DNA of 31,336 nucleotides from positions 1-31,336 of the IMG/VR virus record IMGVR_UViG_3300038797_000015. One strand, given 5' to 3'. Positions 8,572 to 31,052 of the stretch are shown here, piece by piece; the first letter of the stretch is position 1; every line of letters begins with the position of its first letter. The stretch comes from a virus (lineage: Duplodnaviria; Caudoviricetes). Under the pieces are notes generated by a model. The model saw only the letters and a program-made list of their open reading frames with translations, ran no database searches and had not been told where the DNA came from. The position numbers and the translations under genes were made by a program.

Positions 8572-8631
8572 GGCGATGATCCTCGTCGCGTGTCGCGACA
8601 CGATTTGATGATTCTCGAAACGTGTCGCGAC

Positions 8632-9427: not shown

Positions 9428-9635
9428 AATAGGTGCGCGTGTCTTCCCACGCTGCCAGCCAAAGACCTTCCCAGCGTCGACGCCCTATTGCATCGATCTC
9501 GCTGTATTGGTCTCGCGCCACCCCGCAAGCGTGTGATGGAACAGGGTGCGCGGGCTGCCGGTGTTGATTCCGTACGTCGCACTATCCGGCTATCGACGTC
9601 CAGGCTGTCCCGAGGGCTGTCCTGGCTACAGGTAA
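9428..9635 (-). ncRNA. Candidate structured RNA in the late leader
   Basis: No credible ORF; several stems (CCAGG/CCTGG, GCCGG/CCGGC, CGCGCACCC/GGGTGGCGCG, GCGTG/CACGC) between two terminators. Confidence 0.4.
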
Positions 9636-13355: not shown

Positions 13356-14126
13356 TCAGAACTCCAGGCGCTTGATTTCTGAAAGAAGAGCCCGGCTATG
13401 ACGCTGGATGTAGATCTGGCTGAGCTTCTGCTTGCGGGATTCGAAGTCCATACCAACGTCGATCAGGGATGCATTGACGCGCTGGAGATGTTCAATACAG
13501 CGTATTTCACAGGGCGTGAGGTGGTCTCGAATAGAGTCGGTGGGGCTGATGCAGTGAGCGGCCCTGTACGCCTTTGAAGGCATTCCCAAGGCGATTCGAT
13601 TGATCAGGTCGAATTCATTGCTGAAGTGGTAATGTTTGATGTCTTTGCCGATTGATAGGCGACCGTGCTTGATTGCATCAGTAAGGGCTGGAGCCTCGAG
13701 GCGAGCACGCTCCCTAGCTTGCTTCCCCTCGACGAGTTGAATGTGCCCGATTACGACAGCGTCGAAGGTGCGAATCACCTGCAAATGAAACCTGGCACTT
13801 GCCCACATCGCGTAGGCATAAACCAGCTCCTTCATAACGAAGGTGCCACCATTTCGGCCCTCAATCGTAACTACCGGAATTCCGGTAGTTTCCAGTTCAC
13901 CCACAAGCTCTGCAGCTTGCTGTATCGCCAGCCAGTAACCTGGCGCATGACGCTTCTCTTTCCCAGCAGCCTTATGCAGATCGTTCAGGCAATAACGCCC
14001 TTCTAGATCCTGCTTTATTTTCACGCCCCCAAGGACAAGCGACATAGGTCGCGACACGTTTTGCGAATCATGAAAATGTGTCGCGGACTTTTTAAGGCCC
14101 TGTACATCAATGTTATAGGTATGCAT
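13356..14126 (-). CDS. KilA-N domain regulatory/antirepressor-like protein
   Basis: GRYCLNDLHKAAG, GRNGGTF, ELVYAYAMW motifs; GAGG RBS. Confidence 0.88.
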   Translation of the reverse strand: MHTYNIDVQGLKKSATHFHDSQNVSRPMSLVLGGVKIKQDLEGRYCLNDLHKAAGKEKRHAPGYWLAIQQAAELVGELETTGIPVVTIEGRNGGTFVMKELVYAYAMWASARFHLQVIRTFDAVVIGHIQLVEGKQARERARLEAPALTDAIKHGRLSIGKDIKHYHFSNEFDLINRIALGMPSKAYRAAHCISPTDSIRDHLTPCEIRCIEHLQRVNASLIDVGMDFESRKQKLSQIYIQRHSRALLSEIKRLEF

Positions 14127-14716: not shown

Positions 14717-14893
14717 CTACGCGGCCTGAGTTTTCTGCTCAGCCTTCAATGCGCCCTGGGTGATTCGCTCGATTTGGTACTGGCGCAACTCAGGCACGAC
14801 GTCCCATTGGCGGACTGCCTCGTAGGTCACGCTGATTGCCTTTGCCAGCGCCGAAACGGAGCCGAAATGTTGGATCGCTTGTGTTTTGGTCAT
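14717..14893 (-). CDS. cro: Cro repressor (58 aa)
   Basis: Manual translation MTKTQAIQHFGSVSALAKAISVTYEAVRQW...; AAGGAGG RBS; divergent from cI; below the ORF-track cutoff. Confidence 0.9.
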   Translation of the reverse strand: MTKTQAIQHFGSVSALAKAISVTYEAVRQWDVVPELRQYQIERITQGALKAEQKTQAA

Positions 14894-14981: not shown

Positions 14982-15833
14982 ATGAAAATTACTGATCGAA
15001 TTGCTGCCCTGGTTCTGGCTCGAAAGCCCGAGGTAGGCGCGCGCGGGTATAAGCGCGATATTGCGACAACCTGCGGCGTCAGCTATGAAGCTGTGCGCCA
15101 GTGGTTCGCCGGTGATACCGGGAATATCAAAAACGATAACCTTCGGGCGATCGCCGAGGGCTACGACACGACCGTGGACTGGCTGATCTCCGGGAAAGGT
15201 GAGCCGCCTCGCCGCTCAAGCCCTCAGAAATCGGTCGAGCAATCGAAGCAGTCGTCCGCCGACCTTGTTCAGCAGATGCTGGCCAAGCACGGCAAGAACC
15301 TTTCGGATGACGCGAAGCAGAAGATCGCCGAAGCAGTCGCTGACACGGAAAAAGAGGTCAAGTCGAGCAACGTCATTCCGGCTGACTTCTCAGGCTTGCG
15401 CGCCCGGGCGGATGAGGTGCTGATCCCGCAGTACGACGTGCGGGCCGCCATGGGTCATGGCCAGGTTCCGCCGGACTACAACGAGACCGTGCGCAACCTG
15501 ATCGTGCGTGAAGACGTGCTGCGAGAGAAAGGCGTGACCTTCACCTCACTCAATGCCCTGGCGGTGATCACCGGCTGGGGCCAGAGTATGGAAGGCACGA
15601 TCAACGACAAGGACCCTGTCATCGTTGATCGAGGCGTGAATGAGTTCGTCGGCGATGGAATCTACGTCATCACCTGGCACGGCCTGCTCTACATCAAGCG
15701 CCTGCAGATGGCGGATGAAGATCACTTCTGGCTGATTTCTGATAATGAGAAACACAAGGACCAGCAGGCACGGATCGACGACGTGACGATCCATGCCAAG
15801 GTTCTATTGATTTGGAATGCGAGGAAGGCCTAG
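14982..15833 (+). CDS. cI: CI repressor, HTH plus S24 autopeptidase
   Basis: HTH GVSYEAVRQW; catalytic GQSMEG and YIKRL; AMG cleavage-loop region. Confidence 0.95.
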   Translation: MKITDRIAALVLARKPEVGARGYKRDIATTCGVSYEAVRQWFAGDTGNIKNDNLRAIAEGYDTTVDWLISGKGEPPRRSSPQKSVEQSKQSSADLVQQMLAKHGKNLSDDAKQKIAEAVADTEKEVKSSNVIPADFSGLRARADEVLIPQYDVRAAMGHGQVPPDYNETVRNLIVREDVLREKGVTFTSLNALAVITGWGQSMEGTINDKDPVIVDRGVNEFVGDGIYVITWHGLLYIKRLQMADEDHFWLISDNEKHKDQQARIDDVTIHAKVLLIWNARKA

Positions 15834-15975
15834 GTTGTACCGGCTAACAGCCAAACCTCGCTGCGTTAACGCCTATGGCGCGCCCAGGTTGTCAGGCTTA
15901 GGACCTTTCTGCGCCTCTTCGCAAATCCTCGGCATGACCGCCGGGTAAAATTTCATGTATATCAAGGGATTAGAT

Positions 15976-16899
15976 ATGAAAAGTGGTCTGCCGGGCGCCG
16001 CCCCAAAACAGTTTGCGCTTGAGCTTGGCGTCGAAGTCCAGAGAGATGTAAACGGGATCGAAATGGGCGTCCTCGAGAACGGAATTCCGTTTCTCACGCA
16101 GCGTGGTTTGTCGCTGGTCACGGGAGCCCACCGAAGCCTAATTCAAGATATCAGCCAGGAGTGGGAAGATCATTTTGATGATGAGATTCTGACGAAGGAT
16201 CGGATTTCCTTTATCAAGCAGTATCTCTTTCAGCGAGGCTATACGGATCGCAAGCTTTATATCGAAACCATTCGGGATGGTAGTCCACACTACGCCTATC
16301 CTGACATCGTTTGCATGGCTATCCTGGAGTTCTATGCATTTGAGTCTAGGACTACCAACCAGGTAGCCCTCGACAGCTACAGAAACTTCGCGACCTACGG
16401 CCTGCAGAGATTCATCTACGACTCCCTAAATTACGCCCCCGGGGATAAGTGGCAGTTTCATCATGAGCGGGTCTCGATACTAAACAATGCCGCGCCGCTT
16501 GGGCATTTCATTGTATTTAATGAAATCACAGGTCTAATCGTTGATCTCATCACGGCCGACCTAACGGTTAACCATAAGACGATTCCGGATATCAGCGTTG
16601 GGCTGATGTGGGCGAAACACTGGAAGGAGTTCAATCTCGGCTCAATCTATGGCGAGAGAGTTCCATGCCAGCACAATTACCCTGCCAGATATCCCCAAGC
16701 TAAGAGCAATCCACAAGAAGCCAGCGCATACCCAAATGACGCGCTTGCTGAGTTTCGCCGATGGTTCAGATACGACTATCTGGTCACCAGGTTCCCGGAA
16801 TACATCCTGAAAAAGGCACCGACGCTCAAGGGTGGAAAAGACGAAGCACTGAAGATCGGGTCGATGTACGCGCCTCATAAGCCTAAAGGCATAAACTGA
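15976..16899 (+). CDS. bstA: BstA-family abortive infection protein (307 aa)
   Basis: MGVLENGIPFLTQRGL, PDISVG..WAKHW, HNYP..YPQAKSNPQ, ALAEFRRW motifs recalled from BstA; located just downstream of cI as in BTP1; AAGGGA RBS. Confidence 0.8.
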   Translation: MKSGLPGAAPKQFALELGVEVQRDVNGIEMGVLENGIPFLTQRGLSLVTGAHRSLIQDISQEWEDHFDDEILTKDRISFIKQYLFQRGYTDRKLYIETIRDGSPHYAYPDIVCMAILEFYAFESRTTNQVALDSYRNFATYGLQRFIYDSLNYAPGDKWQFHHERVSILNNAAPLGHFIVFNEITGLIVDLITADLTVNHKTIPDISVGLMWAKHWKEFNLGSIYGERVPCQHNYPARYPQAKSNPQEASAYPNDALAEFRRWFRYDYLVTRFPEYILKKAPTLKGGKDEALKIGSMYAPHKPKGIN

Positions 16900-17329: not shown

Positions 17330-17384
17330 CAAGCGTACTTGCATTCAATACACAAGCATGCTTTTATAAATGCAAGCCGACTTG
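17330..17384. promoter_or_regulatory. OL operators (3 sites) / pL region
   Basis: CAAGCGTACTTG 17330, CAAGCATGCTTT 17353, CAAGCCGACTTG 17373, matching the OR consensus. Confidence 0.85.
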
Positions 17385-17403
17385 CAAACGAAACATAAGC
17401 AGA

Positions 17404-17465
17404 CGGCCAGGGCCTCAACAGGCCCGCCGCTCTTTAGCGACACCCCTTGCCGGATCAACACCGGC
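17404..17465 (+). promoter_or_regulatory. nutL-like site: boxA flanked by hairpins
   Basis: CGCTCTTTA boxA consensus at 17429 with GGGCCT/AGGCCC hairpin before and GCCGG-atcaaca-CCGGC after. Confidence 0.55.
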
Positions 17466-17704
17466 CCAGATTCACAGGCAGCGATGAACCGGCCTCAACG
17501 GTTCAGAGGGTTGGCAACTGACCCGGGCGTGCAGCGTAAAGCGCCAAGAACAGTTATCCAGCGGGAGAACAAGCCGAAAGGCCCGCGGCTGGAAGAACAA
17601 CACGATTCAAGCCAGTGACGGCCGCCAGTAGCGGGTCACGGCGCCACAGATTTACTGATGCCGCTTCGATGAGGCGGCATTGGAAATCAACGGATGGCAA
17701 CACG

Positions 17705-17957: not shown

Positions 17958-18254
17958 ATGGAAGTTGTATTTCTCGCAGACAGCGCTTCAGTCGAAGCGT
18001 GGAAGCTGGACAAGATCCGGGTAGTGGTTGAGGTGGAGCCGCAAGCGTTGCTCGAAGATCTTGATGTTGAAGACCGAATCAAAGGTCTCGACGAGCGCGA
18101 AGTAATCACCGCAATGGGGATTAACAAGACGCTCAACCTGCTCAACGAAAAAGAGCTGACCGACTGGATCAAGAGCAGCGATTGCGATCCGCTCGACCTT
18201 CTCAACGCAATCGGCGAAGAGTCAATCCACGAGTGGCTCAACTCGCAAGAGTGA
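17958..18254 (+). CDS. Acidic hypothetical phage protein (98 aa)
   Basis: GGAGG RBS; D/E-rich. Confidence 0.8.
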   Translation: MEVVFLADSASVEAWKLDKIRVVVEVEPQALLEDLDVEDRIKGLDEREVITAMGINKTLNLLNEKELTDWIKSSDCDPLDLLNAIGEESIHEWLNSQE

Positions 18255-18306
18255 CAACCAGCGCCACGACAGCCTGTCGTTAACTGCCCGATCCTCTCTA
18301 TGAGAG

Positions 18307-18472
18307 CGCATCGGAGGTGATCTTCAGTCCCGAAAGGGTCTAAGGGCGTCGAGCTGTAAGGTCAACCCTGCGAGCCGAAAGGCTGACAAATGCGGCGGGG
18401 TTCCGAGCCCTTAGATGGGAGTTCGTAGGAAAGGCAGACCTGGCCACGGCACTGAAGATTACCTCCGATGCG
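18307..18472 (+). ncRNA. Candidate structured RNA module 1
   Basis: 22-bp closing stem with one G-U, nested stems, two GAAA tetraloop hairpins. Confidence 0.6.
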
Positions 18473-18601
18473 GATGCACGCCCAGGCTGATGGGCAACGA
18501 CGCAGGCTCGCAAGTGGGGCGCCGACGGACTTCGGTTGATCGGCTCGGTTGAACCTGACACTTCACACCCAATCCGGAGATCAGCACCGGGCATCAGCAT
18601 C
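18473..18601 (+). ncRNA. Candidate structured RNA module 2 (kissing-loop cloverleaf)
   Basis: GATGC/GCATC closing stem, complementary loops GCTGA/TCAGC, cUUCGg tetraloop. Confidence 0.55.
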
Positions 18602-18624: not shown

Positions 18625-18768
18625 ATGCTCCTACTGTTCCTGATCGGCGCAGCGCTCAGCCATGCGCGGCCAGAACCGCCATCTGATGACGGCCTGCCAA
18701 CCGGTCCCTTGCGCTTCCATCGTGAGCGCTGGCGTTCTCGACCGGGGCTTTCGGCGTTCTGGCGCTGA
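18625..18768 (+). CDS. 47-aa peptide with hydrophobic N-terminus
   Basis: GGAG RBS; MLLLFLIGAALSHARPEPP...; followed by a terminator. Confidence 0.55.
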   Translation: MLLLFLIGAALSHARPEPPSDDGLPTGPLRFHRERWRSRPGLSAFWR

Positions 18769-18803: not shown

Positions 18804-18834
18804 GAAAGCCCGGACGTCCAACCGGGCTTTCTTT
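18804..18834 (+). terminator. tL-like terminator
   Basis: GAAAGCCCGG-N8-CCGGGCTTTCTTT. Confidence 0.75.
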
Positions 18835-18937
18835 ATCCCACCTCTATTACGTCAGCACTCCTCCCCCGCGCCCATCGGCAACCAGCGGGAGGCATGAGTG
18901 CTGACGAATACAGGTGAACCAACGAATGGAGAAAGTC

Positions 18938-29322: not shown

Positions 29323-30045
29323 ATGTCTGAGATAAAGGAAAGGCCGATTTTGTTCTCGGCCCCGATGGTGCGCGCCATCCTGGAAGGCCGGAAGACGGTC
29401 ACGCGGCGGCCGGTGAAAGGGCTCAAGACCGATACCCCTGTAGTCGATGCCTTCGACGACTCGCCACTGATCGGCGCCTGCTGGGACATCGGCGGCCCAG
29501 TGATTCGCAGCCCATATGGACTGCCCGGCGACCGACTGTGGGTGCGAGAAGCTTGGCAAGCTGACGACCAGGTCAATTCGATAGCGCCGCGAGACCTGAG
29601 CCATGGCGAGCCGATCCGGTACCCGGCCGATTGGGGCTTCAGGCAGACCGGTTGCGCGATGATCAAGCCAGGGAAAATCCGGCCTTCAATCCACATGCCG
29701 CGCTGGGCCAGCCGCATCCTGCTGGAAATCACCGACGTGCGCGTCGAGCGGTTGCAGGACATCAGCGATGAGCAGGCGCTGGCCGAGGGATGCTTCTTCA
29801 CCGATTACGGCCGCAAGTGCGGACACGGCGGGAAGGGTTGGGCTGATGTCGGTTCATGCCCTGCGCCGGAAGCTTATCACCCTCAGCGAGACGGCTGGAT
29901 GTGGGACAAAACAACCAGTTCAAGCCAGTGCCTTGGCGCGGCGCGCTGGGCGTTCGCCAACCTATGGAACTCGGTGAACGGGCCCGATGCATGGGACGCC
30001 AACCCCTGGGTCTGGGTTATTGAGTTCAAGCAGGTGACACCATGA
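29323..30045 (+). CDS. Conserved phage protein, ASCH/PUA-like
   Basis: RPILFS..MVRAILEGRKT.TRR, GDRLWVRE, PSIHMPRWASRI, NPWVWVIEF. Confidence 0.85.
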   Translation: MSEIKERPILFSAPMVRAILEGRKTVTRRPVKGLKTDTPVVDAFDDSPLIGACWDIGGPVIRSPYGLPGDRLWVREAWQADDQVNSIAPRDLSHGEPIRYPADWGFRQTGCAMIKPGKIRPSIHMPRWASRILLEITDVRVERLQDISDEQALAEGCFFTDYGRKCGHGGKGWADVGSCPAPEAYHPQRDGWMWDKTTSSSQCLGAARWAFANLWNSVNGPDAWDANPWVWVIEFKQVTP

Positions 30046-30290
30046 ACGAAGAAATCGAATCGAGCGCCGAGCAGTTTATTCGGGCGACCGGGCGGTGCTA
30101 TGTCTCTGCCCTTCAGCGGAATTTCAGAATCGACTACTGGGCCGCCAGCGATCTCATGAAAGCTATGGAAAAGCGGCGCGTGGTCACGCCGATGGACTCG
30201 CAAGGTCGTCGGACAGTCATCGAAAAGGCGGTGACCCATGATCGCCCTCGCCTGGTTCGCCTACGTGTACTGCTACAGGGGGGAGCGGTG
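30042..30290 (+). CDS. FtsK-gamma-like winged-helix segment, open in frame into the next gene
   Basis: VSALQRNFRIDY..ASDLM..ME...VV.P.D..G.R.V resembles FtsK gamma; no stop before 30291. Confidence 0.55.
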
Positions 30291-31052
30291 ATGAATCGCA
30301 TTGTGTGTCAATTCAGCTGCGGAGCCGCGTCGGCGGTTGCTACCAAGCTGGCCCTGGCCGAATACAGCTCCACTCACGACGTGCAGATCGTCAATGCCTA
30401 CCTGGCTAATGAGCACCCGGACAACCGCCGGTTCGCCAGTGACTGCGAAGCGTGGTTCGGCCGCCCCGTAACCGTGCTGCGCGACGAGAAATACGGCGCC
30501 GACGCGCAAGAGGTATTCCGTCGCGAGCGGTACATGAAGAACCAATACGGCGCGCCATGCACCAAGCTCCTCAAGCGCAGGCTGCTCGACACATGGAAGC
30601 AGCCGGGAGACGTCATGGTGTTCGGCTTCACCGCTGAGGAGGCCGATCGTCTCGCGGACTTCCGTGAGCGCAACCCTGATCGGCCGGTTATTGCACCGCT
30701 GATTGATCGCGGCCTGGGCAAGGAAGATTGCAAGGCAATGATCGAGCGCGCCGGCATTGAGCTGCCACTGATGTACCGCATGGGCTACGACAACGCAAAC
30801 TGCATCGGCTGCGTGAAGGGTGGCGAGGGTTATTTCCGGGCTATTCGGGAAGACTTTCCGGAGCAATTTGAGGGGCTGTGCCTGATCCAAGACGACTTGG
30901 GCGAAGGCTCCTACCTGTTCCGCAACCGAACTACCAACGTGCGCTTTTCCCTGCGTGACCTCGGCGACGGCCCGGTGCGGCGGAACGAGAAGATCCCTGC
31001 CTGCTCGTTCTTTTGCGAGATGGCCGAAGCCGACATCGCCGACAACGCCTAA
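30291..31052 (+). CDS. PAPS-reductase-like (adenine nucleotide alpha-hydrolase fold) phage protein
   Basis: FSCGAASAV PP-loop-like motif, CT..LK, NANCIGCVKG, CSFFC; GGGAG RBS. Confidence 0.75.
   Translation: MNRIVCQFSCGAASAVATKLALAEYSSTHDVQIVNAYLANEHPDNRRFASDCEAWFGRPVTVLRDEKYGADAQEVFRRERYMKNQYGAPCTKLLKRRLLDTWKQPGDVMVFGFTAEEADRLADFRERNPDRPVIAPLIDRGLGKEDCKAMIERAGIELPLMYRMGYDNANCIGCVKGGEGYFRAIREDFPEQFEGLCLIQDDLGEGSYLFRNRTTNVRFSLRDLGDGPVRRNEKIPACSFFCEMAEADIADNA

Follow-up and report, generated by a model that had tools for sequence, protein, structure and literature searches.

A structured phage RNA held in a long, probable processing stem that serves as a slot for many exchangeable cargoes

The window analyzed here, the whole 31,336-nucleotide stretch taken from virus record IMGVR_UViG_3300038797_000015 (59% complete, lambdoid layout), carries on its plus strand an uncatalogued structured phage RNA within a known kind of processing stem, and this RNA is part of a large exchangeable set. 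The 22-bp stem P1 is a carrier, a slot shared by many cargoes, one of which occupies it in the window. An earlier note, made from the letters alone, had rightly noticed a folded RNA in this stem and had overlooked the shared many-cargo slot.

The minus strand of the window contains replication genes and cro, and according to ORF annotation a plus-strand operon starts at about 17370 and extends to the recombination genes (Table 1). The plus-strand region 17370-17700 is a structured leader holding the boxA-like site; parts of this region recur in metagenome contigs. The cargo module is intergenic and follows a 98-codon frame that stops at 18254. Directly upstream of the stem lies a conserved leader, whose ACAACCAGCGCCA motif has at most one mismatch in 54 of 80 loci. 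In a BLAST search with the non-coding part of the window, Pseudomonas phages accounted for 25 of the 33 matched records. Several separate elements were observed in the window: (i) a second long conserved stem at 18850-18906 (plus strand, local z about -6), present also in L001 and L004, with the slot 5' arm running directly into its equivalent in L045; (ii) a Proteo-phage-1 RNA (RF03044, 78.7 bits) at 9553-9631 on the minus strand; (iii) a 38-nt palindromic operator-like sequence in two copies, 8592-8629 and 14048-14085; and (iv) a fusion of an FtsK-gamma domain with a PAPS-reductase-like domain at 30042-31052 on the plus strand.

Table 1. Positions of the cargo RNA, its carrier stem, and neighboring features in the window.
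Feature	Position	Strand	Remark
cro-like gene	14717-14893		Divergent from the cI-like repressor gene
cI-like repressor	14982-15833	+	PHROG 4, E 4e-42; Pfam S24; marks the lambdoid layout
BstA abortive-infection gene	15955-16899	+	Directly 3' of cI; PHROG 6287, E 6e-111
Operator-like repeat	17330-17363		From repeat search
boxA-like CGCTCTTTA	17428-17436	+	Near the putative early-left transcript start; seen in sequence
Conserved leader	18254-18306	+	ACAACCAGCGCCA motif; hairpins 18267-18279 and 18294-18306
P1, 5' arm of carrier stem	18307-18328	+	Predicted RNase III cut after 18314
P1a	18329-18338	+	3-bp hairpin, mostly GNRA loop; paired in 22/22 close homologs
Invariant 14-nt UCUAAGGGCGUCGA	18339-18352	+	Unpaired in the nested fold
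Core domain	18353-18450	+	P2-P6 and conserved linkers GACA-AUGCG, AAGG, GGCC
P2	18353-57/18446-50	+	Covarying
P3	18359-62/18438-41	+	Covarying
P4	18365-71/18395-401	+	Covarying
P5	18373-76/18381-84	+	Covarying; tip varies freely
P6	18402-04/18428-30	+	Covarying; variable tip
P1, 3' arm of carrier stem	18451-18472	+	Predicted RNase III cut after 18466
Adjacent second cargo	18473-18595	+	Bracketed by hairpin 18480-18495 (loop AGGCUGAU) and hairpin 18574-18590 (loop AGAUCAGCA); the two loops are complementary
Terminator-like hairpin	18804-18834	+	3' of a 47-aa ORF (18625-18768); read from sequence, no call in terminator scan

All the motifs quoted in the earlier note were found where it had placed them. 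As it had claimed, P1 contains 21 Watson-Crick pairs and a single G-U pair (G18319-U18460) that works on the plus strand only and is a mismatch on the minus strand. The plus-strand fold of the module has an energy of -90.8 kcal/mol (z -4.72), equalled by none of 200 shuffled sequences; z for the minus-strand fold is -4.35. The hairpin 18288-18314, proposed earlier as a competitor for the 5' arm, can form alone (-10.9 kcal/mol) but has a pair probability of 0.00 in context, where only its tip (18294-18306) forms, and it is thus predicted by the folding model not to be populated.

The slot was delineated by two pattern searches. The pattern for the first set was derived from the leader that immediately precedes the stem and yielded 119 IMG/VR loci; an ungapped stem test (at least 17 of 20 pairs) was applied to 119 testable loci, including the window and two named phages, with 114 passing and five failing. 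The pattern for the second set includes the 5' arm and hence fixes the arm sequence; here 118 of 120 loci have the stem and two fail the ungapped test. Three slot loci were left out as too short. The combined sets comprise 232 Pseudomonas phage loci with 214 distinct modules of 71-217 nt, arms included. By BLAST linkage, the interiors of these 232 loci fall into 64 unrelated classes held in the same stem, and the cargo of the window occupies only four loci. Among 111 locus pairs with at least 90% identity over the upstream 250 nt, 90 have cargoes of different classes, so cargoes are exchanged among close relatives.

One member of each interior class was scanned against Rfam, and only two interiors passed the gathering score; each was called as a tRNA whose anticodon arm is collapsed. 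Hairpins resembling a T arm were found in six of the 64 class representatives (0.09 in shuffled sequences). Abnormal or collapsed anticodon arms are seen in the tRNA-like cargoes L319:536-615, L122:409-479, and L098:175-242. The L037 and L012 classes combine a UCGAC motif with a 3' T-arm-like hairpin and are reminiscent of the tRNA-like domain of tmRNA, a likeness that is not significant by alignment. In the window, the stem is directly followed by a second cargo, an interior class between bracketing hairpins that resembles class 23. The same two-hairpin bracket lies inside the stem in 21 of the 214 modules; all six loop pairs are formed in 25 of 31 listed hairpin pairs, and one compensated loop variant occurs among the relatives. 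A resemblance to part of E. coli RydB (E 1.2) is seen in the bracket 3' hairpin, and the region 18473-18595 has weak BLAST matches in phage P1 and in Pseudomonas phages ZC03 and ZC08.

The fold of the cargo was established by comparison of homologs. Four pattern scans gave 21 distinct close homologs after removal of duplicates and of chance matches, the latter discarded before alignment and amounting to 1/8, 3/4, 0/9, and 10/28 loci in the respective scans. The alignment supports a seven-helix structure of 48 pairs, in which 97.8% of cells are paired and 25 pairs have changes on both sides; covariation among homologs, suggested earlier as a check on the folded RNA, is thus found. None of 500 shuffles reaches the same level, and slid controls are 34-40% paired. 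These counts are not probabilities, because the aligned sequences are related. Each of the helices P2-P6 is 100% paired with compensatory changes on both sides in the close-homolog alignment. The cargo has no conserved ORF: stops occur in all six frames of the window cargo, and lengths vary out of frame among the homologs.

The inner fold described in the earlier note was partly borne out. Its CCC-GAAA-GGG hairpin is paired in every close homolog and becomes GUC-GNAA-GAC in three distant ones; its AACCCTGC/GCGGGGTT helix covaries and is conserved as P4, and the AGCC-GAAA-GGCT hairpin covaries as well. These three inner helices stand, but P2 and P3 had been missed, and the TCTAAGGGC/GCCCTTAGA helix (18339/18407) is not supported: it belongs to the single-sequence minimum-energy fold and is perfect in only two of 22 homologs, with eight of nine pairs in ten and seven or fewer in the other ten. 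It is absent from a subfamily with a different P6 tip, and its 3' half instead takes part in the local hairpin closed by P6. Nearest-neighbor energies put the covarying fold 9 kcal/mol above the minimum-energy fold of the window, and it therefore requires tertiary contacts or a ligand. Given the more stable predicted fold, an alternative conformer may exist in the subfamily of the window.

A covariance model built from the close homologs was used to confirm distant relatives. Three were found with 49-56% identity: Stenotrophomonas phage Philippe (81.6 bits), L492 (90.7 bits), and L477 (45.8 bits), the last two being two of 11 new loci tested with the model. All three keep the helices by means of new pairs, together with UCUAAGGGCGUCGA and the AAGG and GGCC linkers, a pattern that fits an RNA recognized by its shape, and each has its own unrelated outer stem of 16-20 bp. 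The invariance of UCUAAGGGCGUCGA is partly built in, as most homologs were found by patterns derived from it. Philippe provides an independent case: it was found by BLAST, yet retains the 14-mer. Judged from its conservation in sequence, UCUAAGGGCGUCGA is likely a tertiary or ligand-binding core. The pairings GCGU/AUGC and GGUC/GGCC and the hairpin GUC-UAAG-GGC are ruled out, being broken in the distant homologs.

A compact multi-helix fold whose long unpaired stretches stay invariant at such identities while the P5 and P6 tips vary freely could also belong to a new small ribozyme or ligand-binding RNA, with the invariant linkers forming a multiply pseudoknotted core. The pairings UCU/AGG, GGC/GCC, and GUC/GAC are possible in such a core, and covariation cannot test them because all are invariant. 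We regard this explanation as unlikely. The earlier statement that the module matches no known family holds: the Rfam scan gave no match at E<=5 over the module, with twister, pistol, HDV-like, and hatchet ribozymes and riboswitches all absent at this threshold, and the same search was negative for the homologs L033, L136, L154, L162, L163, L169, L471, and L477. A hammerhead ribozyme has CUGANGA, GAAA, and NUH elements around a three-way junction; the CUGAAGA of the window sits inside P1 and is missing in L136, L154, L162, L169, and Philippe. Furthermore, a self-cleaving RNA would not need a long processing stem everywhere.

Several other identities were considered. The window cargo has no tRNA call and no cloverleaf, and five consecutive U residues occur in none of the 214 modules, which speaks against a tRNA-like RNA and an Hfq-dependent sRNA of the DicF or PreS type, respectively. 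A C4-type antisense RNA is not supported, given the lack of an Rfam match and a longest complement within its own phage of 10 nt in 31 kb. For a retron ncRNA (a1/a2 repeat), which has a reverse transcriptase gene beside it, no such gene was found among the 35 and 34 window ORFs and 29 neighbor ORFs scanned, a subset of the ORFs in a record that is 59% complete. Matches of 7-10 nt first hinted at mimicry of 16S rRNA, 23S rRNA, RNase P RNA, or tmRNA, but a mimic of host 16S, 23S, 5S, tmRNA, RNase P, or SRP RNA was rejected (z 1.4, no model match below E 2). Only two of 65 queries scored above all 40 shuffles in this comparison, and its excess of sense over antisense matches probably reflects base composition. 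A 23S-like mini-hairpin in the cargo is broken in the distant homologs. An RsmA-type sponge is unlikely, as there are two to four GGA per module, mostly paired in the minimum-energy fold. The literature contained no account of the cargo RNA or of swappable cargoes in such stems, in a search that covered subscription journals and supplementary RNA catalogs (e.g., PMC8040213) thinly.

Another explanation is an antisense RNA that would base-pair through its 14-mer to a conserved host RNA, perhaps at UUCGACG near the 5' end of tmRNA. The tmRNA of Pseudomonas sp. BR20 complements the 14-mer over 8 nt at position 16 and over 7 nt at position 146, TCGACG or longer is present at positions 15-18 in 20 of 25 extracted tmRNAs, and one homolog of the cargo lies inside a tmRNA gene. 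Yet the full 8-mer occurs in only three of the 25 tmRNAs, and a match of 6-8 nt is near chance for 14 nt compared with several kilobases of host RNA. The targets within the phage itself are at most 10 nt in the window, and the modules have no U-tract, unlike DicF and PreS. Such an antisense function is therefore quite unlikely.

The genomic contexts of the homologs bear on the release of the cargo. In L183 (the prophage of Pseudomonas sp. BR20) and L314, it lies in the operon behind cI, as in the window. Other contexts are more varied: L310 has its own promoter, one 65-codon ORF, and a terminator around the cargo; in L311 the cargo comes after a tRNA-like gene within the head cluster; in L312 it is part of a late Leu-Met-Asn tRNA operon flanked by ninG and the holin gene; and in L313, past a terminase gene, it is preceded by a TTGACA-type promoter and followed by a terminator-like hairpin, in a unit where no gene could be annotated. 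Promoters and terminators at L310-L313 were read by eye from the sequence. The conserved leader precedes the cargo in L183 and L310-L313 and is absent in L314. In Philippe, a lytic phage of the Schitoviridae, the cargo sits between tRNA-Met and tRNA-Asn, and in L477 a promoter-like site and an unusual tRNA-like gene precede it. In the complete 74-kb record L492, a permuted tmRNA gene (139.7 bits) has an intervening segment of 164 nt that is wholly taken up by the stem and cargo; this gene (388-865) specifies a phage-encoded two-piece tmRNA of the betaproteobacterial type with the tag ANDDAFAPQLRLAA. The intervening segment of a two-piece tmRNA is removed during maturation. The operons that hold the cargo include early and late ones, and its phages include both lytic and temperate types. 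Because it occurs in stand-alone units, tRNA arrays, and a tmRNA intervening segment, it is very probably released as a free trans-acting RNA.

Residence in processed spacers of unrelated phages, including the tmRNA intervening segment, could also be expected of a mobile selfish element, RNA or DNA, with excised spacers as its hiding place. This is extremely unlikely, given that each record searched has a single copy of the cargo, that the scanned window and neighbor ORFs include no reverse transcriptase or transposase, and that 63 other cargoes occupy the same slot. Searches for further loci gave little. A wider search with the model, covering 21 candidates per genome, recovered one of 151 genomes of the genus and one of 151 of the order, the seed genome each time; none was found in plasmids, and none of ten new loci from the 3'-end pattern was confirmed as cargo. 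Twenty public sequencing runs matched at most 48% of the query words, all as contigs, and one of these runs is on record as RNA. Among four runs compared, one guessed to be RNA has a contig spanning 18285-18459 with eight differences, which is no proof of transcription. Within a coding sequence of the BR20 prophage (L183:14917), 15 nt of the window 3' linker recur on the same strand, probably by chance.

Release by RNase III was assessed by scoring the stem, ungapped, with pair counts from 85 in vivo double-cut sites of E. coli RNase III (PMC6212723, Table S4). As a calibration, ungapped scoring gives the Qin dicB site -22.7, compared with the published -23.9 (PMC6212723). The best register of the window stem scores -19.8 and the next best -22.2; the former value compares with the -25.5 column of PMC6212723, and the best in vivo site among those listed there has -19.45. 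The predicted product is 18315-18466, 152 nt. The same register is best in 201 of the 214 stems, a uniformity for which the search pattern itself is partly responsible at 118 loci. Shuffled pairs score about as well as the pair sequence of the window stem (p 0.20), and the call of RNase III therefore rests on helix length and precedent. The helix is nearly perfect over about two turns, with 22 bp in the window and at least 16 bp in 208 of the 214 distinct slot stems. The earlier suggestion of a functional folded RNA excisable by RNase III draws support from the covariation, from the free-RNA contexts of the homologs, and, although it does not surpass shuffled pairs, from the pair-matrix score. 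In most cases the predicted product has CC at its end, like a CCA end. This likeness was set aside because several unrelated stems would lack the CC end and because a G-C pair at this place matches the preference of RNase III.

RNase III processing of the early transcripts of lambda and Qin is established. In the dicB operon of the Qin prophage of E. coli K-12, cuts are given at 1649182/1649251 and 1649454/1649584 in the supplement of PMC6212723, which credits them to Faubladier 1990. According to the same supplement, both arms of the dicF-dicB stem are cut in vivo at sites separated by 130 nt, and the median read count in the rnc mutant is 0. Qin resembles the window in having a lambdoid operon behind a repressor and an approximately 23-bp stem around a structured interior. 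The interior of the dicF-dicB stem opens with a hairpin like the 5' bracket of the Pseudomonas slot (one of 2000 shuffles is as good), and that of the upstream stem shares 13 nt with the window leader at 18271-18283. In contrast, the product described for Qin, DicF, is a 53-nt Hfq antisense RNA that ends in a terminator lying between the stems, the sources consulted assign no role to the excised interiors, the Qin arms are not significantly like those of the window, and the cargo model has no match in Qin.

The stem in the boxC region of the lambda N leader is likewise long, has a GU-rich 5' arm, and belongs to an early-left transcript. It is known for cis control of N. In lambdoid coliphages this stem is present at 114 of 117 loci (27 distinct) and holds seven interior classes of 78-231 nt. 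Hafnia phage yong1 has the Pseudomonas bracket hairpin in its N-leader stem (20/20 identical), and Hafnia phage Pocitis76 has a tRNA-like RNA there (47.2 bits), annotated as tRNA-Gly, whose acceptor stem continues the N-leader stem. The bracket hairpin is thus an interior module common to 23 of the 214 Pseudomonas modules, yong1, and Qin. The window stem differs from that of lambda in lying two ORFs downstream of the putative leader, with no N gene identified next to it. The resemblance of the arms is weak (p 0.03 for the 5' arm, 0.41 for the 3' arm), and shared ancestry with the lambda and Qin arms is therefore no more than a possibility.

PMC8708148 assigns the lambda stem a cis role in N expression, and the window stem might by analogy be a cis site for processing or translation control only, with the interior as neutral or structural filler. 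Established processing in lambda and Qin agrees with this, and interiors down to 71 nt, arms included, suffice. Nevertheless, the interior is under both structural and sequence selection, travels with changed stems, and occurs in terminator-ended units, which makes a purely cis role very unlikely.

The scenario that we favor is as follows. The cargo would lie on an early-left transcript from a putative early-left promoter; host RNase III would cut the carrier stem on both strands and free a stable RNA of about 150 nt, the covarying core of which, about 125 nt, likely folds compactly. This RNA, presumably recognized by its shape, would serve as a trans-acting decoy, binding a host anti-phage enzyme whose target is tRNA or the translation apparatus. 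For the cargo to be such a protein-binding decoy is a reasonable possibility, somewhat short of an even chance; if release as a free RNA is granted, the chance of a decoy role is about even. Two observations led to this choice: many alternative cargoes are exchanged fast, as if in an arms race, and those tRNA-like cargoes that lack a normal anticodon resemble decoys. The link of the slot to tRNA includes both the T-arm-like hairpins and the tRNA-like cargoes of L122, L098, and L319. Early-left operons are known to carry anti-defense genes, and phage tRNAs counter anticodon nucleases. Of the earlier guesses of a ribozyme, a protein decoy, or an anti-defense RNA, a decoy or anti-defense function appears to fit the context best, as far as the sequence can tell. 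Against a decoy, the window cargo neither folds as a tRNA nor significantly resembles any host RNA checked, which yields no candidate for the mimicked molecule. Against the tRNA link, 57 of the 64 cargo classes have no T-arm-like hairpin, and adjacency to tRNA genes may reflect common processing and not common function.

The evidence for a trans-acting neighbor of tRNA and tmRNA genes, in early and late operons of both lytic and temperate phages, would serve equally well for an RNA that enlists a host factor of translation or RNA processing, or tunes its activity, to promote phage growth without countering defense. A housekeeping aid of this kind would be expected to be fixed, yet the cargo occupies few slot loci and is swapped in near-identical phages, and we consider such a role unlikely. 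The decoy reading can be widened to the proposition that long phage RNase III stems, including the lambda N leader, are slots for swappable structured anti-defense RNAs, with the present cargo neutralizing tRNA- or tmRNA-directed defense in phages of Pseudomonas and Stenotrophomonas; at this breadth it is doubtful.

The cargo defines a small structured RNA family without an Rfam entry, its fold being set by covariation over temperate and lytic phages, and the slot provides a catalog of 64 Pseudomonas and seven coliphage cargo classes that can be screened singly. If the cargoes are decoys, they would constitute an RNA layer of counter-defense in phages that protein-centered screens have missed, and the segment excised from the lambda N leader would carry a separate function, open to testing in E. 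coli K-12. If the stems indeed hold an arsenal, they would be the RNA counterpart of anti-CRISPR gene islands, with this cargo as a founding family. If the cargo is catalytic or binds a ligand, it would represent a new ribozyme or aptamer class.

Comparison with known phage RNAs places the cargo among several kinds. PreS (LPR1) of lambda is an Hfq-dependent base-pairing sRNA that ends at the terminator tL2a, and the main text of its report (10.1101/2024.10.31.621285), supplements apart, contains neither "RNase III" nor "leader". [quoted passage not shown] The cargo differs from it in having no U tail and in its closed ends. Another kind is represented by ToxI mimics and Racr anti-CRISPR RNAs, phage RNA decoys that copy a recognizable host antitoxin or repeat. 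No host template was found for the cargo, unlike these decoys; the proposed action, a phage RNA occupying a host defense protein, would be the same. GOLLD and ROOL are phage ncRNAs associated with tRNA arrays. The cargo is much smaller than these, has a long processing stem at its ends, and lacks both an Rfam match and a cloverleaf; like GOLLD, ROOL, and phage tRNAs, it is non-coding, co-transcribed with tRNAs, and rich in conserved motifs of the tertiary type.
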